Positions 132 to 56,767 of a stretch of 64,000 nucleotides of DNA are shown piece by piece. The stretch covers positions 619,739 to 683,738 of the forward strand of contig CP064977.1 of assembly GCA_016699465.1 (NCBI GenBank), written 5' to 3'. Position 1 is the first letter of the stretch. The number at the start of each line of letters is the position of its first letter. The stretch comes from Candidatus Campbellbacteria bacterium (GTDB taxonomy: Bacteria; Patescibacteriota; Minisyncoccia; Phycocordibacterales; EsbW-18). The notes under the pieces were generated by a model. That model saw only the letters and a list, made by a program, of their open reading frames with translations, had not been told where the DNA came from and did not search any database. The translations under genes were made by a program, and so were the position numbers.

Positions 132-762
132 AATCCACTCGCAGTATTGCGAGACAGGATTTCTGCATACCTTCAAATCCCTTTAAAGAACACCCATTTC
201 TGACTATACCCTATATATTAAAAAGAGCAAGTGTGCAGTAGGTTTTTCGCAAGCCTCGTATACAATGTCGCCAAAAAATGAGTTTGTTGAGTATTTGTAG
301 ATACAATCAAGGCGCCGCAGAGCGACGCCTTTGCTTTTGAGCCACGAAGGGCTCTCCTCTATTCAGTACTTCAGTTTTCAGTACTTCTTCTGGCTGATGG
401 GGCGGTCTGGTTACCTGCTTGCCGGTGTCAATTCGATGCTGTGGAAATGGTAGAAATTGAAGAAATTTCTACCAATCTTCACTCCGACCGACCCGTCGTT
501 GCAGCGGCAGATGATGCCGCACTTCTTCCGGTTACTTCTCCAGAAGATGCACCTGACCCGCCTACCAATTTCTGACTCCATCTGCCTTCTCCCTTTTAAG
601 ACCAGCGCGCCATTGCACCAGTCGATTTACCGTGGGAGGATACGTCTGAATGTCATTATATAATGTTCTAAGGAAACTGCAACTTTTTTGTTGAAAACCT
701 CTACAAAAAAAGATGTTGAACTTGGGTAGGGTTTGGTTAGGTCCGCTCGGTTAATGAAAGGT

Positions 763-3572: not shown

Positions 3573-3680
3573 ATATAAGAATAAGCACAAAGTACAAAGC
3601 ACAAAATCCAAAAAATTAAAAAATACCAAATCAAAAATTTTGAGCTTTGAAATTTGAACTTTGGATTTATCATCATCATT
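3573..3680. repeat. family-A intergenic palindromic repeat, copy 1 (gcacaaagcacaaaatccaaaaa...tttgaactttggattt)
   Basis: Near-identical to 3903..3990; related copies at 5051..5139, 5530..5632, 30985..31060 (inverted) and 45655..45776 inside the 16S gene. Fills the rplN-rplX spacer. Confidence 0.8.
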
Positions 3681-3902
3681 ATGCACGTTAAAAAAGGAGA
3701 CAAAATCACCGTACTAACCGGAAAAGACAAAGGAGCCTCAGGCACGATTCTTAAGGCGTTGCCAAAGAAGGATATGGTTATTGTTGAGGGTGTAAACAAA
3801 GCAAAACGACACCAGAAAGCACGAAAAGGTAACCAGAAAGGTCAAATTCTTGAGAAGTCTATGCCAATTCACGTGTCGAACGTAAAGAAGGTAAAAGCAT
3901 AA
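3681..3902 (+). CDS. rplX: 50S ribosomal protein L24
   Basis: [39 protein letters not shown] (KOW motif) is L24; start at ATG 3681. Confidence 0.9.
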
Positions 3903-3990
3903 AGCTCAAAGCACAAAATCCAAAAAAATTAAAAAATACCAAATCAAAAATTTTGAGCTTTGAAATTTGAACTTTGGATTTATACATATC
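3903..3990. repeat. family-A intergenic palindromic repeat, copy 2
   Basis: About 85% identical to 3573..3680; fills the rplX-rplE spacer and ends at the rplE start. Confidence 0.8.
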
Positions 3991-4554
3991 ATGATTACGG
4001 TAAAAGAAAAACAGAATAAGGCATTTGAAGCCCTCAAGGAAACACTCGGTGTTAAAAACCGCATGGCTATTCCACGTGTTACGAAGGTTATTGTGTCTGT
4101 TGGTACAGGTTCAGCAAAGGATAAGAACAAGATTGAGGTTATCCAGGATCGTTTGATGAAAATTACTGGGCAGAAACCAGCTGGACGTGTTGCAAAGAAA
4201 TCAATTGCATCATTTAAACTTCGAGAAGGACAGGTGATTGGCTATCAGATTACACTTCGTGGTGATCGTATGTACGATTTTCTTGATCGACTCATCAACA
4301 TTGCTTTTCCTCGTACGCGTGACTTCCGTGGTATTGAACGAGACTCCATTGATCCTATGGGAAACATAACTATTGGTATCAAAGAACACAGTATTTTTCC
4401 TGAAACAGCCGACGAAGAAATTCGAGATGTGTTCGGCCTTGCTGTAAGTATCGTAACAACAGCAAAGAATAAGGAAACAGCGGAGAAATTCCTTGAATAC
4501 ATCGGCATTCCATTTAAGAAAGCAGGGGAAGTAAAAACAAAGAAGAAAAAATAA
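3991..4554 (+). CDS. rplE: 50S ribosomal protein L5
   Basis: NRMAIPRVTKVIVSVGTGSA...ITLRGDRMYDFLDRLINIAFPRTRDFRG is L5. Confidence 0.93.
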   Translation: MITVKEKQNKAFEALKETLGVKNRMAIPRVTKVIVSVGTGSAKDKNKIEVIQDRLMKITGQKPAGRVAKKSIASFKLREGQVIGYQITLRGDRMYDFLDRLINIAFPRTRDFRGIERDSIDPMGNITIGIKEHSIFPETADEEIRDVFGLAVSIVTTAKNKETAEKFLEYIGIPFKKAGEVKTKKKK

Positions 4555-4562
4555 GAGACAGA

Positions 4563-4600
4563 AAAGCCCCGCCCGGCAAAGAGGGTGGGGTTTTTCCTTT
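4563..4600 (+). terminator. intrinsic-terminator-like hairpin between rplE and rpsN
   Basis: ccccgccc-ggcaaagag-gggtgggg stem-loop (one G-U) followed by ttttt ccttttct. Confidence 0.55.
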
Positions 4601-4603
4601 TCT

Positions 4604-4632
4604 ATTGCACAAAAAGCCGGGTTCTGGTAGTA
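4604..4632 (+). promoter_or_regulatory. candidate promoter TTGCAC-17-TAGTAT for rpsN, followed by ~150-nt leader
   Basis: ttgcac aaaaagccgggttctgg tagtat immediately after the terminator hairpin; the leader 4633-4780 has several palindromic segments. Confidence 0.4.
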
Positions 4633-4780
4633 TACGTGGGCTTAACTTTGAGTTGAGCTTGTCCTCTTAGAGCCAATAGGCACCGGAGGAGACCATCGCC
4701 TCGTTATCTGTCAGCCGGTCAATTCGCAAGAATTGGTCCATGGACACATCGAGAGGCAGCATTTTTTTTGGAAAAAATAT

Positions 4781-5050
4781 ATGGCACGAAAAGCAATTAT
4801 TGCACGAGACAAAAAAAGAGTAGCGATGCGAGTGAAGTCAGCTCCCAAGCGAGCAGCGCTCAAGGAAGCCCACGATTACGAGGGTCTTCAGGTATTGCGC
4901 AAAAATGCATCACCGGTTCGCACAAAGAATCGTTGTTTTAAATGCGGTCGCCCACGAGGATATATGCGCGAATTCGGCCTCTGCCGTATTTGTTTCCGTG
5001 AACTCGCAAACAAGGGAATGATTCCAGGTGTTAAGAAGGCAAGTTGGTAA
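4781..5050 (+). CDS. rpsN: 30S ribosomal protein S14 (long Zn-ribbon C+ form)
   Basis: [13 protein letters not shown]...[29 protein letters not shown] has four Cys; start at ATG 4781 inside ORF 4733..5050. Confidence 0.9.
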
Positions 5051-5139
5051 TAGAGTAAGCACAAAGCTCAAAGCACAAAATCCAAAAATATTAATCTAAC
5101 TTTTTTGAACTTTGAATTTTGAACTTTGAATTTGAAATT
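5051..5139. repeat. family-A intergenic repeat, copy 3
   Basis: aagcacaaagctcaaagcacaaaatccaaaaa...tttgaactttgaattttgaactttgaatttgaaatt in the rpsN-rpsH spacer. Confidence 0.75.
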
Positions 5140-5529
5140 ATGATAACCGATCCTCTCGCAAACTTCATAACAGCACTTCAAAACGCAGCAAAAGCTGGTG
5201 TTGAAACCGTTGTGGTACCTCATTCACGCCTCAAGGATTCCGTTGCAACTATTTTGAAAAAGGAAGGATATCTTTCAAGTGTTGAACGTAAGGGTAAAAA
5301 GACAAGTAAGATTGAGGTAACGCTTGCATATGACAATGGTGAAGCACACGTTCATGGTGTAAAGCGCATTTCAAAACCATCTCGTCGTATGTATCTTGGA
5401 GTTTCTGAGATTTACGGAGTGAAGAATGGATACGGACATCTCGTTCTCTCAACGCCAGAAGGTATTATGACTGGTCAGCAAGCAAAGAAAGCAAAGGTTG
5501 GAGGAGAAGTCCTTTTTGAGATTTGGTAA
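5140..5529 (+). CDS. rpsH: 30S ribosomal protein S8
   Basis: MITDPLANFITALQNA...GHLVLSTPEGIMTGQQAKK..GGEVLFEIW is S8. Confidence 0.93.
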   Translation: MITDPLANFITALQNAAKAGVETVVVPHSRLKDSVATILKKEGYLSSVERKGKKTSKIEVTLAYDNGEAHVHGVKRISKPSRRMYLGVSEIYGVKNGYGHLVLSTPEGIMTGQQAKKAKVGGEVLFEIW

Positions 5530-5632
5530 AAGATAATAAAAGCATAAAACACAAAGCACAAAATCCAAAAATAAAATCTAAATCTAATTTTTTGAACTTT
5601 GAATTTTAGATTTTGAACTTACACCATCATTT
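5530..5632. repeat. family-A intergenic repeat, copy 4
   Basis: cacaaagcacaaaatccaaaaataaaatctaaatctaattttttgaactttgaattttagattttgaactt in the rpsH-rplF spacer. Confidence 0.75.
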
Positions 5633-6650: not shown

Positions 6651-7328
6651 ATGACCGACGACATTCGCACAACAGAAAATGAGGTTGATATTACAGATGC
6701 TGAAACTGTGGAAGAAATTGCTACAGCAGAAGCTATTGTTGCTCCACGTAGTACTGGCCCTGTAAGTGCGTCACGCGAAGATCGACGCATGCAGAAAAAC
6801 TCTCGCCGTTCACCACGTACTCGTGCGCCACGTATTAAACCTGAATTTGATCAACGTATTATTGATATCCGTCGTGTGACTCGTGTGGTTGCTGGAGGAC
6901 GTCGCTTCAGTTTCAGTGTATGTGTTGTTGCAGGTAACCGCCGTGGTTCGGTTGGTGTAGGTACAGGAAAAGCGGGCGATACAGCAGTTGCTGTAGAAAA
7001 GGCATACCGAAGCGCTCTCAAAAACAAAATCATCATTTCACAAACAGAAGATGGTTCAATTCCACACGAAGTACAAGTGAAGTACTCAAGTGGTATTGTG
7101 AAGCTCTATCCTGCTCCAGGACGCGGTATTATTGCTGGAGGTGCAGTACGTGACGTGCTCGAACTCGCAGGGGTACGCGGTGTTGGTGCAAAAATTCTTT
7201 CACGCAGTAAGAACAAGCTCAATAACGCGGCGGCAACAATCAAGGCGCTCTCGCAACTCACAAAGAACATTAAGACGCACAATATACAAAAGCACGAAAC
7301 ACGAAGCACGAAACACGAAGCAAATTAA
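6651..7328 (+). CDS. rpsE: 30S ribosomal protein S5 (N- and C-terminal extensions)
   Basis: VTRVVAGGRRFSFSVCVVAGNRRGSVGVGTGKAGD...GRGIIAGGAVRDVLELAGV is S5; no L30 gene follows. Confidence 0.92.
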   Translation: MTDDIRTTENEVDITDAETVEEIATAEAIVAPRSTGPVSASREDRRMQKNSRRSPRTRAPRIKPEFDQRIIDIRRVTRVVAGGRRFSFSVCVVAGNRRGSVGVGTGKAGDTAVAVEKAYRSALKNKIIISQTEDGSIPHEVQVKYSSGIVKLYPAPGRGIIAGGAVRDVLELAGVRGVGAKILSRSKNKLNNAAATIKALSQLTKNIKTHNIQKHETRSTKHEAN

Positions 7329-7373
7329 ATATTCTTTCGGATTTCGATATTCGAATTTCGGATTTACACAAAT

Positions 7374-9263: not shown

Positions 9264-9794
9264 ATGTTTCAACACGACGATGTTATTCTCGTCGGAGTAG
9301 GCCATTGGTCATGTTCGAGGAACCCTCAAGATCTCGCGTATCCATTCTGGAGCTGGCGGGTCTCAATTGACGGAGTATTCCTCGAAGACGAAGAGTACAT
9401 TAACACGGGGATCGGGATTCATGGGAAAAGTGGGGCCGACAAGCTCATCGAGCGTCTTGGCCACATCTACCCAAGCCAATTCCTGAAGATTTTTTTGATT
9501 TTCCTGTTCATGTTCCCGGTGATCACACGTTCCTGTATCTACGTCTTTCGAAGATGCTCAATCCGGAGGCGCTCTCGTGGTTCTCAAGGAATTCTTTCCG
9601 TTTGTGTTTTCAAGAGCGGAAGAGACCTTGAGTCCATAAACATCCGCCCGAAGAGACGCCTGCTCTCGGGCGGCTCTTTTATTTATGGGATGGACGAGTT
9701 TAAACCTCGCTCATACTCAGAATTTGGGTCATTTGGACTTCAAATTTGTTTCGGATTTCGATATTCGGATTTTGGATTTTTGCTATATACTTGA
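9264..9794 (+). CDS. hypothetical protein (only the N-terminal ~80 aa looks protein-like; rest doubtful)
   Basis: ATG 9264 preceded by aggaga. The frame stays open to 9794 but runs through a terminator-like hairpin (9646-9685) and the family-B repeat (9736-9785). Confidence 0.25.
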   Translation: MFQHDDVILVGVGHWSCSRNPQDLAYPFWSWRVSIDGVFLEDEEYINTGIGIHGKSGADKLIERLGHIYPSQFLKIFLIFLFMFPVITRSCIYVFRRCSIRRRSRGSQGILSVCVFKSGRDLESINIRPKRRLLSGGSFIYGMDEFKPRSYSEFGSFGLQICFGFRYSDFGFLLYT

Positions 9795-10376: not shown

Positions 10377-10402
10377 TTTTGTACCGATATATCGGTACAA
10401 AA
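10377..10402. repeat. perfect palindrome ttttGTACCGATATATCGGTACaaaa (copy 1 of 3)
   Basis: 26-bp perfect palindrome in the adk-map spacer; the same 20-bp core recurs at 47119-47138 and 51489-51508. Confidence 0.85.
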
Positions 10403-11366: not shown

Positions 11367-11446
11367 ATGCAACGTCCAAAACACAAAAAGTTTCAAACTA
11401 AAACCAATCACCAACTTCTCACTCCCAACCCCTCACCTCTAGTACT

Positions 11447-14212
11447 ATGGAAACCTTCTCATTGACGCCTGAAAAAAAGTTCACCACACCCGATGAAGAG
11501 GTTACTTTTTTGCGTGAGCGTTTAAAGCAACTTGAGACAAACGTGAATGCGGGAACACATGAACTAACGCATGAAACTCCTGAAAAAGAGGTAATACACA
11601 CATATGCACAGCATGAACCGCAAAACATTCTCGCCAAAGGTCATGAAATGCTCCAACCGGAAGTTGATGCGATTGTGTTAGACCTTGCCCCAGAGGAACA
11701 TGACTCGGTCATTGCGGAGCTTCTCTCGGTGATGCAAAAAAAAGGAATACGCAACGCACTTTCCATTGTCGAAAAAATGAACAACCCTCACGTGGAAGAT
11801 GATTTTCACAGGTTTCTAGCTGAATATTTGAAAGAAGGACATGTTGCAAGGGGAATCAAAGAAGGCGAACCGTTGTGGAAGGCTCTCCACATGACACTTC
11901 TTGAAGTATTACTGCCATTTACCTCAAAAGAGGCACAAGAACACCAGAAACCACTCAAAGAACTCCTCTCATCGATGGAGCAATTGTATGCTGGTGCGTT
12001 GTCGGTTGCGTCTGAAAAAGGATCAAAGAAAAAATATTTTTCTCTCGAGCTTGCCGTTGAGGCGCACCTTGAACATGTAACGCTCTACATGTCGGTACCA
12101 TCTGAAAAGAAGGACACTTTTGAAAAACAAATACTTTCTATTTTTCCACAAGCACGCGTGATGGAGTGCAAGAATGACTACAATATTTTTGTTCCCGAAG
12201 GAAAAACAGCTGGCTCGATTGCTGCATACGCACGATCATGTGCGTATCCGCTGAAAACGTATGAGCATTTTGATCAAGATCCACTCACCATTCTTCTTTC
12301 TGCGTTTGCAAAATTGTTGCGTGTGGGAGAAGGGGCCGCACTCCAAGTGCTTGTTCGTCCGGCTGAAACTAACTATACAGAAAAACTAAGAAAGGCGTTA
12401 GAAAAACTTTCAAAAGGAACCCCTACAAAAAAAGCTCTCGATCTCTCATCGTCATTTATTGATGATGTCGGTAAGGAAATGAAAGAGGTGAAGAAAATGT
12501 TTTTTCCTGAGAAAAAGAAAGAAGACGAAGATACAAAGCCAAAAATTATTGATGAAGTTGCTATTGAGCAGGTCAAGCAAAAAATGGCACACACAATTGT
12601 TGAGGCTAACATTCGACTTCTTGCTTCATCAACAACACAGGTGCGTTCAGACGCGATTCTTTCTGAAATGGAGGCGACGTTTAATCAACTTGAGGACCCA
12701 CGTGGTAACGCTTTGAAATTTACGCGTTACACAAAGGTAAAACTTGCGAAACTTGTAAAGGATTTTGCGTTTCGGTTGTTTTCTTCCGATGCCCTACTTC
12801 CTATGAATCTCCAGGAACTTGCAACGTTTGCGCATGTACCGGCGGTGGGAAGTGACTCGTCTCGTGAATTGAAGCGCGTGAAGGCGGGGGGTTCTCCAGC
12901 GCCAGTTGATTTACCAATAGAAGGTTTGTTGCTTGGTGAAAATATATACGGAAATACCAAGACGCCTGTTTATATGACGGAGGAAGATCGACTACGTCAT
13001 TTCTACTGTATCGGACAGACTGGAGTGGGAAAGACAACGCTCCTCAAAAACATGATTATTCAGGACATCAAAAATGGGGAGGGGGTGTGCATGGTTGACC
13101 CGCATGGTTCTGATCTCATGGAAGTGCTTGCAAATATTCCACCAGAACGTGTTGATGATGTCATTTACTTTGATCCAGCATATACGGCGCGACCGATGGG
13201 GCTCAATATGCTTGAGTATGATGTAACGCGCCCGGAGCAGAAGACATTTGTAGTGAATGAACTCTTTTCTATTTTTCAAAAATTGTACGAAGGTTCTCCA
13301 GAGAGTATGGGGCCAATGTTTGAGCAGTACTTCCGTAATGCAACAATGCTGGTTATTGAGGATCCAGAGACAGGAAACACGCTTTTTGACGTATCGCGTG
13401 TTATGTCAGAAAAAGCATTTCGTGATCTAAAGCTCTCGAGATGTAAAAATCCTGTGGTGGTGCAGTTTTGGCGGGAGGTTGCTGAAAAAGCTGGTGGGGA
13501 AGCATCTCTGGCAAACATGGTGCCCTACATCACGAGTAAATTCGATGTATTTCTTGCCAATGACATCATGCGTCCGATTGTGATGCAAAAACACTCCGCA
13601 TTTAACTTTAGGGATATCATGGATAATCGTAAAATTCTTTTGGTGAACCTTTCCAAAGGGCGTCTCGGTGATATCAACGCAAATCTCATTGGTATGATTA
13701 TTGTCGGCAAGATTCTTATGGCCGCTCTCTCCCGTGTGGACGCGGTGAGCGCTGGTCAAAAACTTCCGAATTTTTATCTGTATATTGATGAATTCCAAAA
13801 TATAAGTACGGACTCTATTGCCACAATTCTTTCGGAGGCACGTAAATATAAACTAGGGCTGATTATTTTTCACCAATTTATCAAACAGTTGAGTGAAAAA
13901 ATAAAAGACGCCGTGTTTGGTAACGTGGGAACGATATGTGCGTACCGTGTTGGCTCTGAAGATGCTGAATTTTTGGAAAAACAATTTGCGCCCGTCTTTA
14001 CTGCATACGATTTGATGAATGTAGACAACTTCAATGGATTTTTAAAGATGTTGGTGCGCAATAAAACAGAACGCCCATTTTCACTCCATGCGTATAATTC
14101 TCCAAAAGGTGACAGGGCCACATTGGAAAAAATGAAAGAGCTTTCGTATTTGAAGTACGGTCGTCCTCGCGAAGAACTTGAAGCTGAAATTAATTCGAAG
14201 TACAAAATCTGA
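11447..14212 (+). CDS. TraD/TrwB/VirD4-like (type IV coupling protein family) P-loop ATPase with a ~500-aa N-terminal domain of unknown function; no predicted TM segment
   Basis: C-terminal half has Walker A YCIGQTGVGKTTLL, DPHGSD, Walker B FYLYIDEFQ and ARKYKLGLIIFHQFIKQL...AVFGN, the layout of TrwB/TraD/VirD4. N-terminal 500 aa is unrecognised. Paralog at 56911..58773. Confidence 0.7.
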   Translation: METFSLTPEKKFTTPDEEVTFLRERLKQLETNVNAGTHELTHETPEKEVIHTYAQHEPQNILAKGHEMLQPEVDAIVLDLAPEEHDSVIAELLSVMQKKGIRNALSIVEKMNNPHVEDDFHRFLAEYLKEGHVARGIKEGEPLWKALHMTLLEVLLPFTSKEAQEHQKPLKELLSSMEQLYAGALSVASEKGSKKKYFSLELAVEAHLEHVTLYMSVPSEKKDTFEKQILSIFPQARVMECKNDYNIFVPEGKTAGSIAAYARSCAYPLKTYEHFDQDPLTILLSAFAKLLRVGEGAALQVLVRPAETNYTEKLRKALEKLSKGTPTKKALDLSSSFIDDVGKEMKEVKKMFFPEKKKEDEDTKPKIIDEVAIEQVKQKMAHTIVEANIRLLASSTTQVRSDAILSEMEATFNQLEDPRGNALKFTRYTKVKLAKLVKDFAFRLFSSDALLPMNLQELATFAHVPAVGSDSSRELKRVKAGGSPAPVDLPIEGLLLGENIYGNTKTPVYMTEEDRLRHFYCIGQTGVGKTTLLKNMIIQDIKNGEGVCMVDPHGSDLMEVLANIPPERVDDVIYFDPAYTARPMGLNMLEYDVTRPEQKTFVVNELFSIFQKLYEGSPESMGPMFEQYFRNATMLVIEDPETGNTLFDVSRVMSEKAFRDLKLSRCKNPVVVQFWREVAEKAGGEASLANMVPYITSKFDVFLANDIMRPIVMQKHSAFNFRDIMDNRKILLVNLSKGRLGDINANLIGMIIVGKILMAALSRVDAVSAGQKLPNFYLYIDEFQNISTDSIATILSEARKYKLGLIIFHQFIKQLSEKIKDAVFGNVGTICAYRVGSEDAEFLEKQFAPVFTAYDLMNVDNFNGFLKMLVRNKTERPFSLHAYNSPKGDRATLEKMKELSYLKYGRPREELEAEINSKYKI

Positions 14213-15867: not shown

Positions 15868-17262
15868 ATGTCAGACACTATGAATACACACACAGAGAAG
15901 GGGCATGTAACACTTGGATTTTATGGTGGCGTTGGTACCGTAACTGGTGCGAATTTCCTTTTAAGTACTCCGGAAGGAAACGTTATTGTTGATTGTGGTA
16001 TGTTTCAGGGTATGCGTATGTGCAATCCAAATAATGCAAATATGTTTGGATATGATCTCTCGACACTCGATGCCCTCATTGTGACACACGCACATATTGA
16101 TCATATTGGACGTATTCCAAAATTAGTGAAGGATGGATTCCGTGGCCCTATTTACTCAACTATCGAAACACGGGAGCTTGCCGAAGTAATGCTTCCTGAC
16201 GCTGCTGGTCTCATTGTGAAAGAGGCGATTTTGTGCGGAGAAGAACCTTCATATACTGCCGAAGATGTTGCGCCAGTGTTTCTTCAGTGGAAAACGGTTC
16301 CGTACTATACGCCGTTTACCATTGCTGATATGACGTTTGAATTTAAAAATGCAGGCCACATTCTTGGTTCGGCGCTTGTGCAATGTATCCACCCGTCCGT
16401 TGGAAAGATTATATTTACAGGTGATTTGGGTAACTCGCCGTCGCTCATTATGAAAGACACGGATGTTATTGAGGATGCAAATATTTTAGTAATGGAGAGC
16501 GTGTATGGGGATCGTGTGCACGAAGAGGTGCCTGACCGTCTCGCACAATTAGAAGACGTTATTGAAAACACCATTAAAAACAAAGGTACACTTCTTATTC
16601 CAACATTTTCGATTGAACGCACACAAAATATTCTGTATGAAGTAAATATGCTCATTGAAGAAGCACGTATTCCACACATTGATGTGTATCTTGATTCGCC
16701 ACTGGCGACAGCGGTAACTGAAGTGTACAAACGTCATCCAGATAACTTTAACGAAAAAACACAACAAGCGATTGCGGCGGGGGATGATGTGTTTGCGTTC
16801 AAAGGATTGAGGGTGGTGAGCTCTACACAAGAGTCAAAGGCGATTTATGAAACTCCGGGGCCAAAAATTATTATTGCTGGTTCAGGTATGTCACACGGAG
16901 GACGCATTATCGGGCACGAAAAGCATTACCTCTCAGATCCGTTGTGTACGTTGTTGATTGTTGGATATCAAACGCCGGGAAGTTTGGGGCGACAGCTCGC
17001 CGATGGTGCAAAGAAAGTTACGATCGGAAAAGAAGAAATTGATATTCACGCCACGGTGCGCTCAGTATCAGGGTATTCAGGTCACCGTGATATGAATGGC
17101 CTCATCCGTTTTGTGAATGCGACAAGTTTAACCCTACGAAAAGTGTTTGTAACAATGGGCGAGCCAAAGACATCTCAATTTTTTGCACAACGACTTCGTG
17201 ACTACCTTGGTGTGAATGCTGTCTATCCAAATCTCCATGATGTGGTGGATATCTCAAAGTAG
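15868..17262 (+). CDS. MBL-fold beta-CASP family hydrolase (RNA-metabolising metallo-beta-lactamase-like)
   Basis: HAHIDHIGRIPKL motif (HxHxDH), GDLGNSP and later Asp/His motifs, C-terminal beta-CASP-like region; start at ATG 15868. Confidence 0.7.
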   Translation: MSDTMNTHTEKGHVTLGFYGGVGTVTGANFLLSTPEGNVIVDCGMFQGMRMCNPNNANMFGYDLSTLDALIVTHAHIDHIGRIPKLVKDGFRGPIYSTIETRELAEVMLPDAAGLIVKEAILCGEEPSYTAEDVAPVFLQWKTVPYYTPFTIADMTFEFKNAGHILGSALVQCIHPSVGKIIFTGDLGNSPSLIMKDTDVIEDANILVMESVYGDRVHEEVPDRLAQLEDVIENTIKNKGTLLIPTFSIERTQNILYEVNMLIEEARIPHIDVYLDSPLATAVTEVYKRHPDNFNEKTQQAIAAGDDVFAFKGLRVVSSTQESKAIYETPGPKIIIAGSGMSHGGRIIGHEKHYLSDPLCTLLIVGYQTPGSLGRQLADGAKKVTIGKEEIDIHATVRSVSGYSGHRDMNGLIRFVNATSLTLRKVFVTMGEPKTSQFFAQRLRDYLGVNAVYPNLHDVVDISK

Positions 17263-17469
17263 GGGACGTTAGGGGCGGGAGGTTGGAACTCGGCGATTAG
17301 TTTTAGTTTGGTTATTGGTCATTTGCTATTTGATGTTGTTTCGGATTTCGGTGTTCGTCTTTCGAATTTTCGTTGATTATTGTTGTTTGGTTATTGGATA
17401 TTTGCTATTTGATGCTAATATTTAAGTGCACCTTTCTAGCTTCTAGTCTCTAATATCTAGTATCCAACC

Positions 17470-18163: not shown

Positions 18164-18188
18164 GGAGATAAAATTTTGATAAAGTCGA
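18164..18188 (+). repeat. 25-nt motif ggagataaaattttgataaagtcga (copy 1 of 2)
   Basis: Identical 25-mer at 25681..25705; both copies lie ~15-20 nt upstream of promoter-like elements (here TTGCAT-17-TAGTAT). Confidence 0.7.
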
Positions 18189-18873: not shown

Positions 18874-19089
18874 GTGAGCAAGTACAGCGAGAAGGACGCC
18901 AGCAAGGATACAGGCTCCTCTTCTAAGGAGACCTCTCGTTCCTGGCATGACGCTCGAGATGACTCTGGTGCTCGTAGTGGTGGAGACAAGGAGCATTTTG
19001 AGAGTGCTCCTTCGTGGGCAGACTCAACCACAGAGTCAGGTATTTCGCTTTTTCCCGAAAGAAGTTCGTCGGGCGGAAGCGGCAAGTAG
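18874..19089 (+). CDS. hypothetical small acidic Ser-rich protein
   Basis: GTG 18874 preceded by aaaggagg; 71 aa, low complexity. Confidence 0.3.
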   Translation: MSKYSEKDASKDTGSSSKETSRSWHDARDDSGARSGGDKEHFESAPSWADSTTESGISLFPERSSSGGSGK

Positions 19090-25644: not shown

Positions 25645-25682
25645 AGGCTCCACCCTCCTCGTCAAATTCCCTGGGGTGTAGG
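25645..25682 (+). repeat. 38-bp direct repeat, copy 2
   Basis: aggctccaccctcctcgtcaaattccctggggtgtagg immediately after the CYTH stop; abuts the 25-mer motif. Confidence 0.8.
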
Positions 25683-25705
25683 AGATAAAATTTTGATAAA
25701 GTCGA
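25681..25705 (+). repeat. 25-nt motif ggagataaaattttgataaagtcga (copy 2 of 2)
   Basis: Identical to 18164..18188. Confidence 0.7.
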
Positions 25706-26015: not shown

Positions 26016-27845
26016 ATGAGCAACGAGATGGAGGCAAAGGCACCGGCAACGTTCAAGGAGTTTCTGGCGGAGTTCAAAGAGACATGTGACACTGTTCGCT
26101 ATGTGTTTCGTCTCACCGATTCTCCGGACGCACGCACGTGGCTCTACAGGAAGTACTTTCTTGTGGTTGTACTGATTCTCATGAGCATGTTTCAACCGAG
26201 AGTGACGGGAATGATTTTCAAAGGCGTCGTGAACAACAACGCCAACCGAATCATCCTGTCTGTCGCTCTTCTTGGCGCACTCATGCTCTTCGAGAAACTT
26301 GTTGCGCTTCTCTACTGGAGGGCGCACGAGTATCTCTTTGGACTGTCCACAGGAAATCTCTATGTACGGATTACCGAGCGGTTTTTTGAAAAGTCGCCCG
26401 GGCAACACCGTCATGTGAAGTCGCTCAACTACGAAAGTGTTAACAAAGGCAAAGACAAAGCTTTTGATATGCACGTTAATCAAGTTCCTGAGCTCGCGGA
26501 AGCAACGCTCACCATCGTGATCGCGTACGCTCTCGTGTGGACTGTTTCACCGTTTGGTGGAATAGTACTCGGGATTGCCATGTGCATTAACATTGCATGG
26601 TCAATCTACCTGAATTATCTCGTCGCGGTCGTGTGCACTCCCATCGAGCGCGACTTCAGTCGCTTCAGGCGTTTTTTTGCTGAGGTGTTTCGTCTCTTTG
26701 AACGTGTGTACGTCTCAAACCGAAAACAGTTTGAAGTCGAACGCATCACACAGCGGTGGCAAGATCTTGCTGTTCGTGATCGAACGTTTTGGTTGCGTCA
26801 CGGCAAGCATGCGACTGCTATGGATATGGTTATGGTTCTCGCAGCACTGATTGTGATTGGTCGTGAATCACTGCACAGTATAGTAAACGACCAAGGCGCA
26901 GGTGCTGTTGCTGTGTTGTATCCACTCTTCGCGTGGTCGAGGCAGATTATCGGCGATATTTGGCGCATCAGACACACTGAACGCCGGATTTACGAGTCGG
27001 TTTCGTCGGTACGGGTTATGCGCGAAACACTCGACATCGTTCCTGATGTTGTTGACAGTGAAAACGCGCGCACACTCGATGCTGAGCACGCGTTGACGCT
27101 TGCGTTCGAGAACATCTCGTACTCGTATCCTCATTCAAACGGCACAATCCAGAACGTTTCGTTCTCGGTGTGTCCGGGAGAAAAAATCGCACTTATTGGT
27201 CCCACCGGGTCTGGTAAGTCAACGATTGAGTATCTTGCGATGCGCTTCATGGACCCGACATCTGGGCGCGTGTGCATCAACGGGCGTGACATTCGGGAGT
27301 ATCAAAGCGGTTCGCGTCTCAACGCAATCGGATACATTCCGCAGAAGCCCCTCATCTTTGATGGAACCGTGCGGGAGAATCTCCTGTACGGTGTTTCTCC
27401 GCATGAGGGGTGTGTGTGGACCGACGCAGAACTTCTCGAACTCATGAACGATCTCGCGATTGACTTCGGGGTGCGTCCAGAGGGTGAAAATCCTCTCGAC
27501 ATCATCGTCGGTCGTGACGGTGTTCAGCTTTCGGGTGGGCAGGCACAACGTCTCGCAATCGGAGCGGCGGTTATCAAACAGCCGAAGCTTCTCATTGTTG
27601 ACGAGGCAACGAGTGCGCTTGATTCGTCCACGGAAACGCAGACACTTGAAGGTTTGCGTAAGTGGATTAACGGATCCGGTATGCTCGTTGTAGCGCATCG
27701 TCTGTCGACGGTGCGCGATGCCGACCGCATTATCGTTCTTGCGAACGGTAAAATTGAAGCGGTCGGAACGTCGTTTGACGAGCTCGTTGGTTCTTCGGAA
27801 ACGTTCCGGAAACTGATTGCTCATCAGGACCATCTGTTGGGGTAG
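26016..27845 (+). CDS. ABC transporter, fused permease/ATP-binding exporter
   Basis: N-terminal 6-TM domain; NBD with GPTGSGKST Walker A, LSGGQAQRLAIGAAV signature, LLIVDEATSALD Walker B. Start at ATG 26016 after aaaggggag. Confidence 0.88.
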   Translation: MSNEMEAKAPATFKEFLAEFKETCDTVRYVFRLTDSPDARTWLYRKYFLVVVLILMSMFQPRVTGMIFKGVVNNNANRIILSVALLGALMLFEKLVALLYWRAHEYLFGLSTGNLYVRITERFFEKSPGQHRHVKSLNYESVNKGKDKAFDMHVNQVPELAEATLTIVIAYALVWTVSPFGGIVLGIAMCINIAWSIYLNYLVAVVCTPIERDFSRFRRFFAEVFRLFERVYVSNRKQFEVERITQRWQDLAVRDRTFWLRHGKHATAMDMVMVLAALIVIGRESLHSIVNDQGAGAVAVLYPLFAWSRQIIGDIWRIRHTERRIYESVSSVRVMRETLDIVPDVVDSENARTLDAEHALTLAFENISYSYPHSNGTIQNVSFSVCPGEKIALIGPTGSGKSTIEYLAMRFMDPTSGRVCINGRDIREYQSGSRLNAIGYIPQKPLIFDGTVRENLLYGVSPHEGCVWTDAELLELMNDLAIDFGVRPEGENPLDIIVGRDGVQLSGGQAQRLAIGAAVIKQPKLLIVDEATSALDSSTETQTLEGLRKWINGSGMLVVAHRLSTVRDADRIIVLANGKIEAVGTSFDELVGSSETFRKLIAHQDHLLG

Positions 27846-28491: not shown

Positions 28492-28563
28492 AGTACTGGG
28501 GGGTGAGAGGTTGGGAGTTGGGTGTTAGTGATTGGTTTTGGTTTTGCGGTTAGTTTGGTTTGG

Positions 28564-29183: not shown

Positions 29184-29362
29184 AGTAGTAGAAGTTAGAA
29201 GTTGGTGATTGGTTTTGGTTTGGTGGTTGGTTAAAATGTAGCGCTACTATAGCACATTTTCCTGTTTATACAATATTTTATCGGTGGTTCTTTTTGCTGG
29301 CGCGCTTCTGTAGTTTTGCTATAGTTAGTCTGCACAATAATAATGCACAACACAGGTTACGT

Positions 29363-30513: not shown

Positions 30514-30963
30514 ATGGCACAGTTGATTCAAAACAAAAAAGTACTCCGTGATGTTGAAGTTCTCGAACATGTTGAGGCAGGCATTGAGCTCAAAGGGTAC
30601 GAGGTGAAATCAATACGCGCAGGTAACGGCTCACTTGATGGGGCGTATATTGTTGTGCGTGCAGGGGAAGCGTTTTTGGTGAAGATGCACATTGGGCCAT
30701 ACCAACCTAAGAATCAACCTGAAAACTATGATCCTGAAAAAACACGAAAACTCCTCCTTTCTAAGAAACAAATTCAGGAATTAGCTGATGGAGAAAAACA
30801 GAAAGGATTGACAATAGTGCCATTATCGATGTATAATAAGAAAGGGTTTATAAAAGTTGATTGTGCCCTCGTGCGTGGAAAGAAGAAGGGAGATAAGCGC
30901 GAGTCACTCAAAAAGAAAGAAGCGCAAAAAGATATGCGTCGTACTTTGAAAAGAGAATACTGA
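30514..30963 (+). CDS. smpB: SsrA-binding protein SmpB
   Basis: KVLRDVEVLEHVEAGIELKGYEVKSIRAG..SLDGAYIVVRAGEAFLVKMHIGPY is SmpB; tmRNA gene follows. Confidence 0.9.
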   Translation: MAQLIQNKKVLRDVEVLEHVEAGIELKGYEVKSIRAGNGSLDGAYIVVRAGEAFLVKMHIGPYQPKNQPENYDPEKTRKLLLSKKQIQELADGEKQKGLTIVPLSMYNKKGFIKVDCALVRGKKKGDKRESLKKKEAQKDMRRTLKREY

Positions 30964-30984
30964 TGAGGCACCGCCGAGGCGGTG

Positions 30985-31060
30985 CAAGTTCAAAATCCAA
31001 ATATCAAAATCCAAAATATATTTTTTTGAGTTTTGTACTTTGAGCTTTGTGCTTGTTTCA
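30985..31060. repeat. family-A repeat, inverted/partial copy
   Basis: caaaatccaaatatcaaaatccaaaatat...tttttgagttttgtactttgagctttgtgcttg is the reverse-complement flavour of the ribosomal-operon spacer repeat. Confidence 0.6.
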
Positions 31061-31065
31061 TCTCG

Positions 31066-31467
31066 GGGGATGCCTCGTTTCGACAATGTGACAATTGTTA
31101 TACGTGCGTGGTGGAAGTGTGCTGACTTCCTTAAAACAGTACAAACATACCTGCAAAATCTGCAGTCAAAAGTCCATACTTCACAGTATCGGATTTCGCT
31201 TACGCTCTTGCATAAAGATTCTTGTCCTTCGGGACAAGTTGCCTAAGCGACGTCTTCTGACATCTTCGTTCGAGAGGTGTTAGCGGGTGTAAACCAATTC
31301 GAACTAGCGTACTCGGATGTTCCGACGAATACGTAACACTAATCGGTTCTGGCACGCTATCGTTTCGCCTGTCTTTAAGATAGTGTGTAAGACCTCAAGA
31401 CAACGCTAGATTACGTAGACTCGTATGGCATTACATATTGGACGTGGGGTCAAACCCACCATCTCCA
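31066..31467 (+). ncRNA. ssrA: tmRNA (ssrA), one-piece
   Basis: 5' GGGGAUGCCUCGUUUCGAC pairs with 3' ...GUGGGGUCAAACCCAC CAUCUCC A. Internal tag reading frame ends gct tac gct ctt gca taa (..AYALA*), as tmRNA tags do. Confidence 0.75.
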
Positions 31468-31799
31468 CATTTCAAAAATCAGCTCCGCATGTCGGAGCGA
31501 TTTTTGTTATGTGGAGATGAACACAACACCTGCGTGTTGTGTGGGCGGGTTTGAGCGGTCGGAGCGATGTGCCAAGGGCACACGCGAGACGAGCCTACGA
31601 GCACTTAGGATTTTGGAGCACAGAGTGCGAACAAAATACTTAGTGACTTGGAGGTCATCGCCACCATCTCCACAAAATTAATGAGTCGTAGACGAATATA
31701 ATTTTGTAGGCTCCCGATTTTTCTGTCGAGTACGACATTTAAAATCGCAGTCCCATTTCGGGGATGCCGCACATTGTGCGGCGCCACATCATTATTTTA

Positions 31800-32491: not shown

Positions 32492-32791
32492 ATGTTGTTC
32501 ACATTGCTCAAAGCGCTTTTGATGCTCATTGGTCCATTGGGAATGGTAGTTGTGGGTTTCGTTACTGTCATACTGTACGCTCCACGGAAGATTCAGGACG
32601 TCTCTGGTTGTCTCGGCGCGATTGTGGGAGTGATTCTCTGGGGAGAATTGGTGTACCTTGGATATCGCGCGGACACTGACCAGTATCTTTTCTGGTCATG
32701 GGTCGCTGTGTGTGGTGTTGGTTGGGCGATTTTTCTCGCCGCCTGCGCCGCCTATGGCATTGCGTGCGTCTTGGCCAGTCAAAAAGAGTAG
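32492..32791 (+). CDS. hypothetical small membrane protein
   Basis: aaggag RBS; 99 aa with 3 TM helices. Confidence 0.4.
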   Translation: MLFTLLKALLMLIGPLGMVVVGFVTVILYAPRKIQDVSGCLGAIVGVILWGELVYLGYRADTDQYLFWSWVAVCGVGWAIFLAACAAYGIACVLASQKE

Positions 32792-35510: not shown

Positions 35511-35819
35511 ATGAGAGTCGCTCACGCGGTCTCTCGAGACCGCCACCAACTTCGACTTGTTCCTCGCGAAGGAACGAAGCTCTCAACTGACCAGAAAGAG
35601 TTTCTCGACATACTGCACCGAGAGGCGATTCTATCGCCCCGAGCAACGGTCGTGTGGAAAGAGCTTCAAAGTCAGGGGCTCAGTGCTCGGCAAGCGTTTG
35701 CTGCGTACTGGCTCATGAGAGATTTGTTTGTCGGGAAAGGTTTCAAGGGGTTTAATCAGGATGAACTTTTTGCGGTTCTTCGCGAAATCGAGGAGCAAAA
35801 TCCACCGCTTGTGGGGTGA
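35511..35819 (+). CDS. hypothetical protein
   Basis: 102 aa; tggaggtggtat RBS before ATG. Confidence 0.45.
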   Translation: MRVAHAVSRDRHQLRLVPREGTKLSTDQKEFLDILHREAILSPRATVVWKELQSQGLSARQAFAAYWLMRDLFVGKGFKGFNQDELFAVLREIEEQNPPLVG

Positions 35820-37537: not shown

Positions 37538-37580
37538 ATATCTTTGATATGAAACTTCGTTCGGACTATGCAAATCTGTG

Positions 37581-37654
37581 TCCGCCCCCATGGACTCGAA
37601 CCATGAACCGCCGAGGTATAAGCTCGGTGCTCTAACCAATTGAGCTAGGGGCGG
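37581..37654 (-). tRNA. tRNA with anticodon UAU (Ile, AUA-decoding)
   Basis: Minus-strand cloverleaf: acceptor CCGCCCC/GGGGCGG, D arm GCTC-AATTGGTTA-GAGC, anticodon arm CCGAG-CTTATAC-CTCGG, T arm CATGG-TTCGAGT-CCATG. Anticodon TAT read by eye; C1-G72 start unusual. Confidence 0.7.
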
Positions 37655-37758
37655 ACACAAATTTTCAAAAATCCTCACTCGTTTCCATATCTACGATACA
37701 CCAGGTTCACTCGCTCGGAGAAGAAAACAAGTTCTCTTCTCCTCACTCGTTGCCTGCC

Positions 37759-44245: not shown

Positions 44246-44549
44246 GGGTGCTCCTCTAGTAATCAGTCCCGTTCGTCGGTTCGACTGGCGATCGGGACTT
44301 TTCTAGACAGATCTTTGACAACTGAATGTAGACCAGCTTGTACACCGAGTACGTGTATGAGTTGGATAGCCAGCACGCACTTGCCACCGCTTGTACGTGC
44401 TGGAAAACCCGTCTTTTTCCGACGCAGATTGTCGTACAACATCTGTGTCAAAAAAGAAATACAAAATATAGAAAATTAGAATGGAGAAAAAGAGCTAATC
44501 ACAATTTTTCTTTTGTTCTGCTCATTTGGGTGAAAATTTATTTTCATCT

Positions 44550-46135
<1,586 letters not shown>

Positions 46136-46311
46136 AGTCAAATGACAATCGTTGAACATCGAAATTTTTTCATGTTTGATCTAGGCGGTCGATATCATGT
46201 ACCTCAATTGAGTACGTGATGGATAGTAACTGGACATCTTTAAGTCAGTTGGACACCAGGGAAAGACCGGTTGAGCAGAACAAAAGAAAGACTGTGATTT
46301 TAAAAAAATAG

Positions 46312-46350
46312 GGAGCCCCGTTTTCGTATCGCGAAAACGGGGCTTTCCTC
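46312..46350 (+). terminator. strong hairpin downstream of 16S
   Basis: gagccccgttttcg-tatc-gcgaaaacggggctt has a 14-bp stem; U-tract weak. Confidence 0.5.
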
Positions 46351-46412
46351 TATACAAAATTATTTTAAGGAGCATACTTCCTGCAGATGTGTACACATAA
46401 GGGAGAAGAAAC

Positions 46413-46559
46413 ATGCTTTCAGTTCGTGACACTTCAACTATTGGCATGGTCGGAATTTGGCTTGTTTCTACGACGGTAGCACTCACCATTAGTGTGGCGG
46501 CAGTGTTGCTCTCAGTCCTTCATAGGTCGGTATCAAAGGGAATTACCTCGACGAAGTAA
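46413..46559 (+). CDS. hypothetical small membrane protein (48 aa)
   Basis: gggagaagaaac ATG; hydrophobic MLSVRDTSTIGMVGIWLVSTTVALTISVAAVLLSVL; followed by a terminator. Confidence 0.35.
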   Translation: MLSVRDTSTIGMVGIWLVSTTVALTISVAAVLLSVLHRSVSKGITSTK

Positions 46560-47114: not shown

Positions 47115-47142
47115 CAACTGTACCGATATATCGGTACAGTTG
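47115..47142. repeat. perfect palindrome caacTGTACCGATATATCGGTACAgttg (copy 2 of 3)
   Basis: 28-bp perfect palindrome; same 20-bp core as 10380-10399 with different, still palindromic flanks. Confidence 0.85.
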
Positions 47143-51484: not shown

Positions 51485-51512
51485 ACTCTGTACCGATATA
51501 TCGGTACAGAGT
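51485..51512. repeat. perfect palindrome actcTGTACCGATATATCGGTACAgagt (copy 3 of 3)
   Basis: 28-bp perfect palindrome after murC. Confidence 0.85.
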
Positions 51513-56010: not shown

Positions 56011-56767
56011 GTGAACACTTTCCCCGTCTTTGTTTCGTGCTCAGTTCGCATTACGAGTCACGCAGTGACCCGCTACCTTCATTGGAAGCGGAAGTTGCTT
56101 GGGTGGCCTAGTTCGAAGTCGCTCGCTCGTCAGGAAATCCTCCACGCACTTGGGTTCGCGGTTCCCTGCACGTTAGATAATCTTCTAACGTACCGTCAGA
56201 GTTCCGATAAGTGGGGATTCCCGGTCATTTTTTATCATACGTCTCCGTGGAGATTCGTGATAAAAGATGAAAATCCGTACGAGTGGGTCGTTCTCACCAT
56301 CGAGCCCGATGTGTACCCAAACAACACGGGTCCATGGAAGGGGGTTGAGGGGGTTTCAGAAATTGCCCTCGATCCACCGTTCACCATTGGTGATATTGTG
56401 CGCTACAAGGGGTACAAGACTCAGGCCGATAGACGCCAACAAAGGGAGGAGAAAGGAGATGGTGAACCCATCGTGTTGCTTCTTGGTGGGTCGACTCGAA
56501 GTGGGAGATGTTATCCTTACTTTGACAAGTTACACCAAGGGGAACGTGCGGGTGCGGGTTGTGCGCGGCGGGAGGGCCTTGCAGTGGGTCCACTCACGTG
56601 ACGGTTTTCAGTTCGAGGGGTGGTTTGACGGTATCTCATGTCCCACAGAGTTGGGACGAACACTCAAGGTCGTTGCCAACATGTCTGGTTGTACGGGCGT
56701 CGTTGAGCATTCTCTCGACGAAGAGTTGAAGAGCGGGGGGTGGGTCGCGTTTCGCCTCGTGCAATAG
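56011..56767 (+). pseudogene. hypothetical gene in GC-rich island, apparently frameshifted
   Basis: Protein-like frame from GTG 56011 (RBS aaaggagg) to about 56465, continuing in the +1 frame from about 56475 to 56767. Region 55.95-56.78 kb is GC-rich. Confidence 0.4.

Follow-up and report, generated by a model that had tools for sequence, protein, structure and literature searches.

Loss of the anti-Shine-Dalgarno sequence from a 16S rRNA gene and evidence for Shine-Dalgarno-independent starts in a 64-kb segment of a Paceibacteria genome

The DNA considered here (64,000 nt of Candidatus Campbellbacteria bacterium contig CP064977.1, the whole of which we call the window) carries a 16S rRNA gene whose 3′ end has no recognizable anti-Shine-Dalgarno (anti-SD) sequence, and ribosomal-protein genes that have no Shine-Dalgarno (SD) sites and are in part preceded by U-rich repeats. 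The + strand of the first 11 kb carries the S10/spc ribosomal-protein cluster (S19 through Map). Rfam searches identified a complete 16S rRNA gene, a transfer-messenger RNA (tmRNA) gene at 31066-31470, and three tRNA genes, and found no 23S rRNA gene after the 16S gene. The nearest relatives of the L5 protein among species-representative genomes are encoded by Paceibacterota/Parcubacteria metagenome-assembled genomes (79% and 73% identity, lower thereafter). No uL30 gene lies between S5 (6651-7328) and L15 (7374), which are separated by only a 45-nt spacer; its absence fits the Candidate Phyla Radiation (CPR). Sixty-four genes were called from open reading frames (ORFs) and self-trained codon usage, and the gene starts used throughout are these calls, not an annotation. 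Feature coordinates are collected in Table 1.

The Rfam match for the complete bacterial 16S rRNA spans 44550-46143 and covers the whole model. Helix 45, as read from the sequence, is intact, with a perfect 10-bp stem (46107-46116/46121-46130) and a GGAA loop. Directly 3′ of it the gene reads GAUUUAGUCAAAUGACA; the bases after the helix are GATTTAGTCAAATGACAATCG, at the position where other bacteria have GATCACCTCCTTA. CCTCC is absent throughout 44400-46420, from 150 nt upstream of the 16S gene to past its terminator. Across the 64-kb window, no GATCACCTCCTT-like site stands out above chance, and the best such match is the SD of the ORF at 18874, read on the opposite strand. The unusual C1406 is offset by G1495 in a compensated pair and, judged by this compensation and by the full-model score, the gene is not a pseudogene.

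Metagenome contigs were scanned with a 16S pattern ending in the loop of helix 45, with the tail left unconstrained, and 13 loci were returned. Five are relatives of the window locus (L082, L086, L092, which overlaps L086, L090, and L094) and represent four distinct sequences; the two alignable loci, L090 and L094, are ~95% and 89.5% identical to the window 16S, respectively. The organism itself, or a relative at 92%, is represented in Logan runs SRR11674038 and SRR11673994. All five carry GATTT(A/T)GTC(A/C)AATGACA after helix 45, and none has CCTCC within 250 nt 3′ of the helix. The unrelated loci include six with CCTCC at offset 5; the remaining two are cut off or showed none. Because the changed tail is common to the five related loci, the 16S 3′ boundary given in an earlier note on this DNA is correct, and the loss of the anti-SD is a lineage trait. 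That note had claimed a 16S rRNA without CCUCC after helix 45, and the claim stands: neither the pre-rRNA nor the 64 kb yielded a CCUCC-bearing tail or a sign of a misplaced boundary. An anti-SD hidden farther downstream, for example, past an intron-like insert, was ruled out, as CCTCC is missing from the pre-rRNA and from the relatives' 250-nt trailers. A CCUC at 46201 is not conserved among the relatives.

SD usage was measured as the duplex energy of positions -25 to -1 with GAUCACCUCCUUA, using shuffled upstream sequences and random windows as controls. The 64 window genes average -3.45 kcal/mol, compared with -3.34 for shuffled sequences and -4.06 for random windows, a distribution at chance level and not that of normal SD usage. 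The 18 window genes of the ribosomal-protein operon average -2.6 kcal/mol, as expected from the earlier note, which had described the core ribosomal-protein genes as lacking an SD. As a method control, the starts of the 18 operon genes were anchored by tblastn in 80 ribosomal-protein loci of other genomes (68 Paceibacteria-type, 10 outgroup), none of which includes a 16S gene. Outgroup loci (Anaerolineae, Parvimonas, Planctomycetia, and others) gave means of -7 to -12 kcal/mol, with 75-100% of genes at ≤-6. Means for the 68 Paceibacteria-type loci were -0.4 to -4.5 kcal/mol, with at most one-third of genes at ≤-6, except in one locus with just two anchored genes, half of them at ≤-6. As these 68 operons are at chance level, SD-less ribosomal-protein operons are general in the class and not peculiar to the window genome. 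With the anti-SD absent and SD use at chance level, initiation must be SD independent.

Pairing of leaders with the new tail was evaluated in the same way. The tail contains UCAAAU, which could pair with the AUUUGA of the repeats described below. Duplex energies with GGAUUUAGUCAAAUGACA averaged -3.96 kcal/mol for the leaders, weaker than those of shuffled upstream sequences (-4.82) and random windows (-4.78), which rules out a replacement anti-SD of this kind.

A different start signal is shared across the lineage. In the window, position -1 is U at 70% of starts and a pyrimidine at 90%, and positions +4 to +33 are 40% A. The minimum free energy of 50-nt segments at window starts is -5.25 kcal/mol, compared with -8.46 in internal segments (p = 4e-5). 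Among 860 Paceibacteria operon genes, U-1 is found in 66% (G in 3%), A-6 in 69%, A-11 in 53%, and A-3 in 49-51%, and G stays at 3-12% throughout -12 to -1; across the lineage ~86-90% of genes have U or C at -1, mostly U. Outgroup operon genes show the usual G peak at -13 to -8 and no bias at -1. Upstream stop codons are not the cause of the U-1/A-6 context, since it is still present when the 344 genes whose spacers reach 20 nt or more are taken by themselves. The start signal of the lineage is thus a G-depleted, A-rich -12 to -1 region with A-6 and U or C at -1, followed by A-rich early codons and weak local structure. SD-less leaders outside the repeat families are made up of other low-complexity families: those of the gene at 11447, rpmI, and infC are C/A rich (...AACCAATCACCAACTTCT...AGTACT), and that of rplR is purine rich (GGTAGAGATTAGAGACTAGA), so U-richness is not the common denominator. 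The leaders before these first three genes are also of one G-poor family in the same orientation, ..AAACCAAAACCAATCAC(C/T)AAC..AGTACT or ACTACT, followed by the start codon.

Our reading, to which we assign a probability of roughly 0.65, is that the window belongs to a member of the Paceibacteria (Parcubacteria, CPR) whose 16S rRNA has lost the anti-SD, that its native genes initiate without SD pairing, and that the heptad-repeat motifs near some starts are not a start signal. The 30S subunit would find start codons through an unstructured, Kozak-like context, as in Bacteroidia, and re-initiation by terminating ribosomes probably contributes in tightly packed operons.

Downstream of helix 45, about 140 nt of structured RNA are conserved in all five related sequences. 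Four hairpins make up most of this region: a small one closed by GUC/GAC, one that varies in sequence but with compensatory changes, one of 12 bp, and one of the form CCGG-GAAAGA-CCGG. The invariant AGGCGGUCGAUAU lies between the second and third, and the GGAU right after helix 45 pairs with an AUCC-like sequence ~125 nt downstream. In the alignment, 93% of cells are paired, versus 33-45% with slid partners, and nine pairs are altered on both sides in a compensatory manner. A search of Rfam returned no matching family for the trailer. The complementary strands that enclose the gene and trailer, both conserved in L094, are by their pairing the usual leader-trailer processing stem of pre-16S rRNA.

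The U-rich motifs belong to a repeat family. With up to two mismatches, TTTGAACTTTGRATTT has 16 matches in the window, compared with 0.41 expected, and the tttgaactttggattt motifs are the 3′ arms of 90- to 110-nt imperfect hairpins made of 7-nt units. We counted seven copies of family A and three of family B. Family A has an A/C-rich 5′ arm (AAGCAYAAAGYWCAAAGCACAAAATCCAAAAA), a loop that is A rich in the operon copies, and a U/G-rich 3′ arm, with the formula (CAAAGNN)n, loop, (NNCUUUG)n and a 7-nt period in both arms. The arms form an inverted repeat in every copy; complementarity is 75-80% over 23-32 nt in the four main operon spacers and 71-84% over 18-48 nt in the full set. The predicted folds of the operon copies are weak, with energies between -8 and -16 kcal/mol and z scores between -0.6 and -2.1. 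Family B (TTTCGGATTTCGATATTCGRA) precedes rplO and adk, with a further copy at 17339. As the earlier note had observed, repeat arms abut the starts of seven genes: the distance from arm end to ATG is 0-18 nt for S3 (1627), L24 (3681), L5 (3991), S8 (5140), L6 (5633), L15 (7374), and adk (9798). Arm and start are separated by G-free linkers of 9-18 nt (ATCATCATCATT, ATACATATC, ACACCATCATTT, and ACACAAAT) with an A-6/A-3/U-1-type context. At the L22-S3 junction, the repeat segment 1513-1581 encodes a Lys/Thr/Pro-rich (Lys-rich) C-terminal extension of L22, the element having been absorbed into a ribosomal-protein gene.

Orthologous spacers in other Paceibacteria have medians of 5-20 nt, versus 88-108 nt in the window, and mostly lack heptad elements. 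A minority of relatives carry analogous heptad-periodic hairpins at other junctions (L014, L031, L042, L057, L023, and L022), and the S8-L6 spacer of L003 contains a 133-nt hairpin of the window's family B. In another Parcubacteria relative (L026), the L24-L5 spacer has GATTTAGT three times in tandem just before rplE; the same octamer opens the new 16S tail of the window, which may be a coincidence. Since repeat positions differ among relatives, the elements are gained and lost quickly and lie outside the conserved initiation apparatus. Copies would have entered several spacers between cistrons, the spacer that separates smpB from ssrA, and, within the 16S gene, the tip of helix 40 (where L090 has a different insert of ~60 nt), leaving before the AUG a G-free linker with the lineage context. 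In the predicted folds of three copies, the single-stranded distance from stop to AUG is 18, ~15, and 22 nt, near the normal spacer length. Stem formation would hold the upstream stop and the next start ~15-22 single-stranded nt apart, making the insertion nearly silent for translational coupling and hence tolerable to the operon. A promoter role was rejected (6 promoter-like sites versus 9.8 expected), as was a terminator role, the sole strong terminator-like site (a 14-pair stem at 4561-4596, after rplE) lying outside the repeats.

Repetitive extragenic palindromes (REP) and the mosaic elements they form (BIME), miniature inverted-repeat transposable elements (MITEs), and Neisseria Correia elements are short, noncoding, multicopy imperfect palindromes located between cotranscribed genes, possibly in either orientation. 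The window repeats resemble them in being multicopy, intergenic, and imperfectly palindromic, but they differ in being AU rich, thermodynamically weak, and 7-nt periodic and in having one copy within an rRNA helix. Target-site duplications and terminal inverted repeats were not seen in this comparison, in which the divergence of the relatives would hide empty sites and duplicated targets; repeat positions are unshared, and one copy is inverted.

Other ORFs in the window do have SDs. Very strong, well-spaced canonical SDs precede the ORFs at 18874, 35511, 56011, 32171, 43775, 20063, and 56459; sites of lesser strength are found in front of 46413 and of the gene for the ABC exporter at 26016 (AAAGGGGAG). 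Of 13 ORFs listed as SD led, all but 39737 are atypical in composition, with third-position GC contents (GC3) of 0.46-0.73 versus 0.362 ± 0.045 for 54 native genes and codon-usage z scores of -2 to -6.6. Pfam searches of the 13 matched only the ABC exporter and 39737 (WG-repeat), and a PHROGs scan of ten of them found no match. Two SD-led ORFs searched in a protein collection are orphans, with no match beyond their own genome or a single close relative. Neither a function nor a donor could be assigned to these ORFs from the Pfam, PHROG, and homology searches. They cluster after the tmRNA gene, around the 16S gene, and in a 7.5-kb segment between 25-nt direct repeats. In the window as a whole, GGAGG is associated with downstream starts weakly above control pentamers, and 15 of 34 strong SD-plus-ORF combinations fall outside native genes, in 25% of the sequence, a modest enrichment that is partly circular. 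Very strong SDs survive only before foreign-composition orphan ORFs and would most simply be relics of acquisition.

The earlier note had proposed that several putatively acquired genes, including the ABC exporter, have strong GGAGG sites and that native genes do not. The contrast is retained for the very strong SDs, which are confined to ORFs of foreign composition. The exporter does not fit it: Parcubacteria-like contigs are the only ones with full-length homologs, and in relatives, too, the gene is richer in GC than its locus. Acquisition of this gene is therefore not supported, and from its homologs it looks native.

The 25-nt direct repeats (GGAGATAAAATTTTGATAAAGTCGA) are perfect, lie at 18164-18188 and 25681-25705, and are 7,517 nt apart. 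Between them lie a GNAT gene, orphan ORFs with SDs, and a stretch of low GC content (0.37), an arrangement suggestive of the termini of an integrated element. In the anti-SD-less relatives, the first ORFs past the 16S gene have normally spaced canonical SDs (AAAGGAGG, AGGAGGTGG, GGGGAGG, and AAGGAGGT), which their larger, native-looking neighbors lack, and SD-like sites precede a run of small ORFs in L092. The ftsH start, called at 32698, is probably ~64 codons too far upstream, by comparison with the gene call in L095 (7349). An SD-led ORF (32492-32791) overlaps this start region; its substitutions relative to L095, by codon position, number 17/11/6, with no coding-type pattern.

Several observations weigh against the reading preferred above. 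The tail is known from the gene sequence and not from a mature 16S 3′ end, a second rrs copy may exist elsewhere in the 811-kb genome, and the foreign class is partly defined by codon usage and hence is not fully independent. Moreover, SD-like sites stand before the first ORF after the 16S gene in four anti-SD-less relatives, which a pure relic origin does not predict, and before the exporter ortholog in L096; as relics alone, they would be notably frequent. The sites after the 16S gene in the four relatives, the perfect and optimally spaced SDs in the window, and the identical SD of 35511 in L095 would be accommodated if an anti-SD persisted in a second rrs copy or in another RNA, with SD-led genes translated canonically and the window 16S unrepresentative of the ribosome population. 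We consider this very improbable, because native genes show no SD signal of any kind, the tail is kept across relatives that are 89-95% identical, and searches of the pre-rRNA for CCUCC, and of the 64 kb for a hidden tail bearing it, were negative; L095, at 87-92% identity, is also too near for the conservation of one SD to carry weight. The conserved trailer raises the further idea that the anti-SD was replaced rather than merely lost. A ~140-nt multihelix 3′ domain (46131-46270), closed by the GGAU/AUCC helix, would, if kept in mature 16S rRNA, be located near the mRNA exit, on the platform of the 30S subunit, and have a part in SD-independent start selection; alternatively, a GGAUUU/AAAUCC duplex common to this domain and the heptad hairpins might allow one nuclease both to mature the 16S 3′ end and to cut polycistronic mRNAs into short-leader cistrons. 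We hold this proposal, in either form, to be distinctly unlikely, and either form must also account for perfect SDs before a minority of ORFs in several anti-SD-less genomes.

For the repeats, the earlier note had suggested S1/standby-type initiation with repeat-derived U-rich enhancers; on this model, the U-rich 3′ arms would be single stranded, serve as standby sites for S1, and promote SD-independent initiation at ribosomal-protein genes. The position of the arms before seven start codons is compatible with this, and because the element is a near palindrome, either insertion orientation would place the U/G-rich arm 3′. The operon hairpins are also weak enough that this arm may be open in vivo, which counts against our reading to the extent that a modest enhancer effect is possible. 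However, known S1-dependent A/U-rich enhancers are a general single-stranded U-rich tract 5′ of the start, and the tract in the window differs: it precedes just 7 of 64 genes, has a complementary A/C-rich partner arm in every copy, and recurs in untranslated contexts, within the 16S gene and before the tmRNA gene, the smpB-ssrA copy aligning better in reverse complement. The 11 of 18 operon genes that have no arm are equally SD-less, orthologous junctions in SD-less relatives mostly have no element, and other leaders are C/A rich or purine rich. No bS1 gene was found in the 64-kb window. A role as enhancers is thus not supported, and we regard it as unlikely; the tttgaactttggattt motifs are better described as arms of inserted hairpin repeats than as a start signal. 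It is a little easier to imagine, though still doubtful, that the hairpins serve as substrates for RNA processing, either of the RNase III/intervening sequence (IVS) type or in the manner of Neisseria Correia elements. Their cleavage would excise the helix 40 insert, aid pre-tmRNA maturation, and cut polycistronic mRNA into short-leader cistrons, perhaps through the GGAUUU/AAAUCC duplex that closes the 16S trailer. Long imperfect duplexes do lie at an rRNA helix tip and beside a stable RNA, and short ORF-less CPR rRNA insertions are suspected RNase III IVSs (PMC11270868). Four family-A/B copies end in GGAUUU (3668, 3981, 45762, and 7366; the ending at 9780, a fifth case, is GGATTTT); the 16S tail opens with this sequence, which pairs there with the downstream AUCC-like sequence, and the window encodes a β-CASP RNase (15868-17262). 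Counting against this are the shortness of the GGAUUU match (a 6-mer, the DNA being AT rich), the low stability and numerous internal loops of the operon copies, and the lack of an identifiable RNase III gene in the window. The enzyme at 15868-17262 is a β-CASP/metallo-β-lactamase RNase with an RMMBL domain (RNase J/CPSF-like) and is a candidate RNA-processing enzyme.

To our knowledge, almost all bacteria keep the anti-SD, even in lineages that do not use SDs, and true loss is rare. Tsurumaki et al. (2022, RNA 28:1041; PMC9297842) report the anti-SD motif in just 48% of Parcubacteria 16S genes and state that SD helices are presumably not formed in those without it. The window is alike, being from a Parcubacteria/Paceibacteria genome without CCUCC(U) at the 16S 3′ end. 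Anti-SD-less Parcubacteria 16S rRNA and SD-independent initiation are therefore already published, and the window is a further well-documented case. The parts of that paper available to us do not describe the replacement tail, a structured trailer, the start context, or residual SD-led ORFs. The paper also connects the anti-SD-lacking group with loss of uL1; the rplK-rplA locus lies outside the window. Relative to the published accounts, as far as those portions go, four features appear new: the trailer with its conserved structure, a start context with U-1 and A-6, a repeat family that has members in spacers as well as in helix 40, and the occurrence of SDs before ORFs of foreign composition. 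In Bacteroidia, SDs are lacking genome-wide, and Flavobacterium genes have A-3, A-6, and A-12/-13 upstream with low structure (Baez et al. 2019, PMC6847099). The window shares SD-less native genes, upstream adenines (here A-6, A-3, and A-11, so the positions are not identical), and low structure at starts; the Bacteroidia motif, as we read it, is without the strong pyrimidine (U) preference at -1 found in the window lineage. Bacteroidia retain the anti-SD, hidden under bS21/bS18/bS6 (PMC7797042), whereas in the window 16S the sequence itself is gone. The helix 40 copy resembles rRNA IVSs and CPR rRNA insertions (PMC11270868), being a ~100-nt ORF-less extended stem-loop at an rRNA helix tip, in a group with basically one rRNA copy. 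An insert that shares its repeat family with intercistronic spacers, as the helix 40 copy does, is not reported in the accessible portions of surveys of this type.

Loss of the anti-SD provides a natural test of other roles of the 16S 3′ tail and of start finding without SDs. Gene callers and ribosome binding site calculators that reward SDs will mis-score starts in such genomes, and the presence of an SD could flag recent acquisitions. The repeat family links intercistronic spacers, the tmRNA leader, and an rRNA expansion and may help explain the origin of short CPR rRNA insertions.

Table 1. Coordinates of the features discussed (window positions, except in the last four rows, which give positions in related loci)
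Feature	Position	Strand	Remarks
Pre-16S processing stem, leader strand TTTTTCTTTTGTTCTGCTCA	44505..44524	+	Complementary to trailer strand 46271-46289
16S rRNA gene through helix 45	44550..46130	+	Rfam RF00177, 1368 bits, model positions 1-1533
Family-A repeat inside 16S gene, lengthens helix 40 tip (~100 nt)	45667..45765	+	-53.7 kcal/mol, z -8.05
Noncanonical 16S 3′ tail GAUUUAGUCAAAUGACAA, replaces GAUCACCUCCUUA, no anti-SD	46131..46148	+	From sequence; near-invariant in L082, L086/L092, L090, L094
Conserved structured 3′ trailer	46149..46270	+	Covariation in alignment of five related loci; no Rfam family
Pre-16S processing stem, trailer strand TTGAGCAGAACAAAAGAAA	46271..46289	+	Complementary to leader 44505-44524
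Terminator-like GC hairpin with T-rich tail, end of 16S transcription unit	46314..46350	+	From sequence and fold
Family-A repeat, L22-S3 junction; 5′ arm and loop within L22 ORF	1513..1614	+	L22 ORF ends at 1581
Family-A repeat, L14-L24 spacer; 5′ arm AAGCACAAAGTACAAAGCACAAAAT, A-rich loop, 3′ arm ATTTTGAGCTTTGAAATTTGAACTTTGGATTT	3583..3668	+	25-nt arms, 80%; -13.9 kcal/mol, z -2.1
G-free linker ATCATCATCATT and rplX ATG, between repeat and start	3669..3683	+	Context A-6, A-3, U-1
Family-A repeat, L24-L5 spacer; 5′ arm overlaps L24 stop codon	3894..3981	+	26-nt arms, 77%
Family-A repeat, S14-S8 spacer	5057..5133	+	24-32-nt arms, 75%
Family-A repeat, S8-L6 spacer, weakest copy	5541..5620	+	23-nt arms, 78%; -8.1 kcal/mol, z -1.05
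Family-A repeat, smpB-tmRNA spacer	30986..31054	+	Best alignment in reverse complement; region 30960-31070, -35.1 kcal/mol, z -3.5
Family-B heptad repeat before rplO	7335..7366	+	TTTCGGA TTTCGAT ATTCGAA TTTCGGA TTT
Family-B heptad repeat before adk	9749..9780	+	
Orphan ORF with strongest SD, AAAGGAGGTGAT	18874..19089	+	-18.9 kcal/mol; GC3 0.53, codon score z -4.8, no family
Orphan ORF with SD GGAGGTGG (NCBI IPJ70_03690)	35511..35819	+	SD unchanged in L095 (87-92% identical)
SD-led orphan ORF, AAAGGAGGTGG	56011..56601	+	Upstream of type IV secretion system (T4SS) coupling-protein gene
AAACCAAAACCAATCAC-family leader, T4SS coupling-like ATPase gene	11380-11446		
AAACCAAAACCAATCAC-family leader, rpmI	28492-28560	-	
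AAACCAAAACCAATCAC-family leader, infC	29184-29232	-	
SD site in L090	1351-1370		
SD site in L082	~325-345		Reverse complement
SD sites in L094	10575-10590, 10730-10750		
SD sites in L092	3206-5132	-	

The L5-S14 spacer (4555-4780) is unlike the other spacers of the ribosomal-protein cluster. The GC-rich terminator-like hairpin at 4561-4596 is succeeded there by a possible promoter and by an rpsN leader of ~130 nt with strong structure, and the spacer has a total fold of -81.6 kcal/mol; an Rfam search of this spacer gave nothing significant. The tRNA gene at 37581-37654 is flanked by partial duplications of both its halves (37500-37537 matches 37579-37616, and 37760-37798 matches 37619-37657), which look like integration or excision scars. 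A 22-nt perfect palindrome, CTGTACCGATATATCGGTACAG, occurs at three intergenic sites (10379-10400, 47118-47139, and 51488-51509) and could be an operator or a bidirectional terminator.

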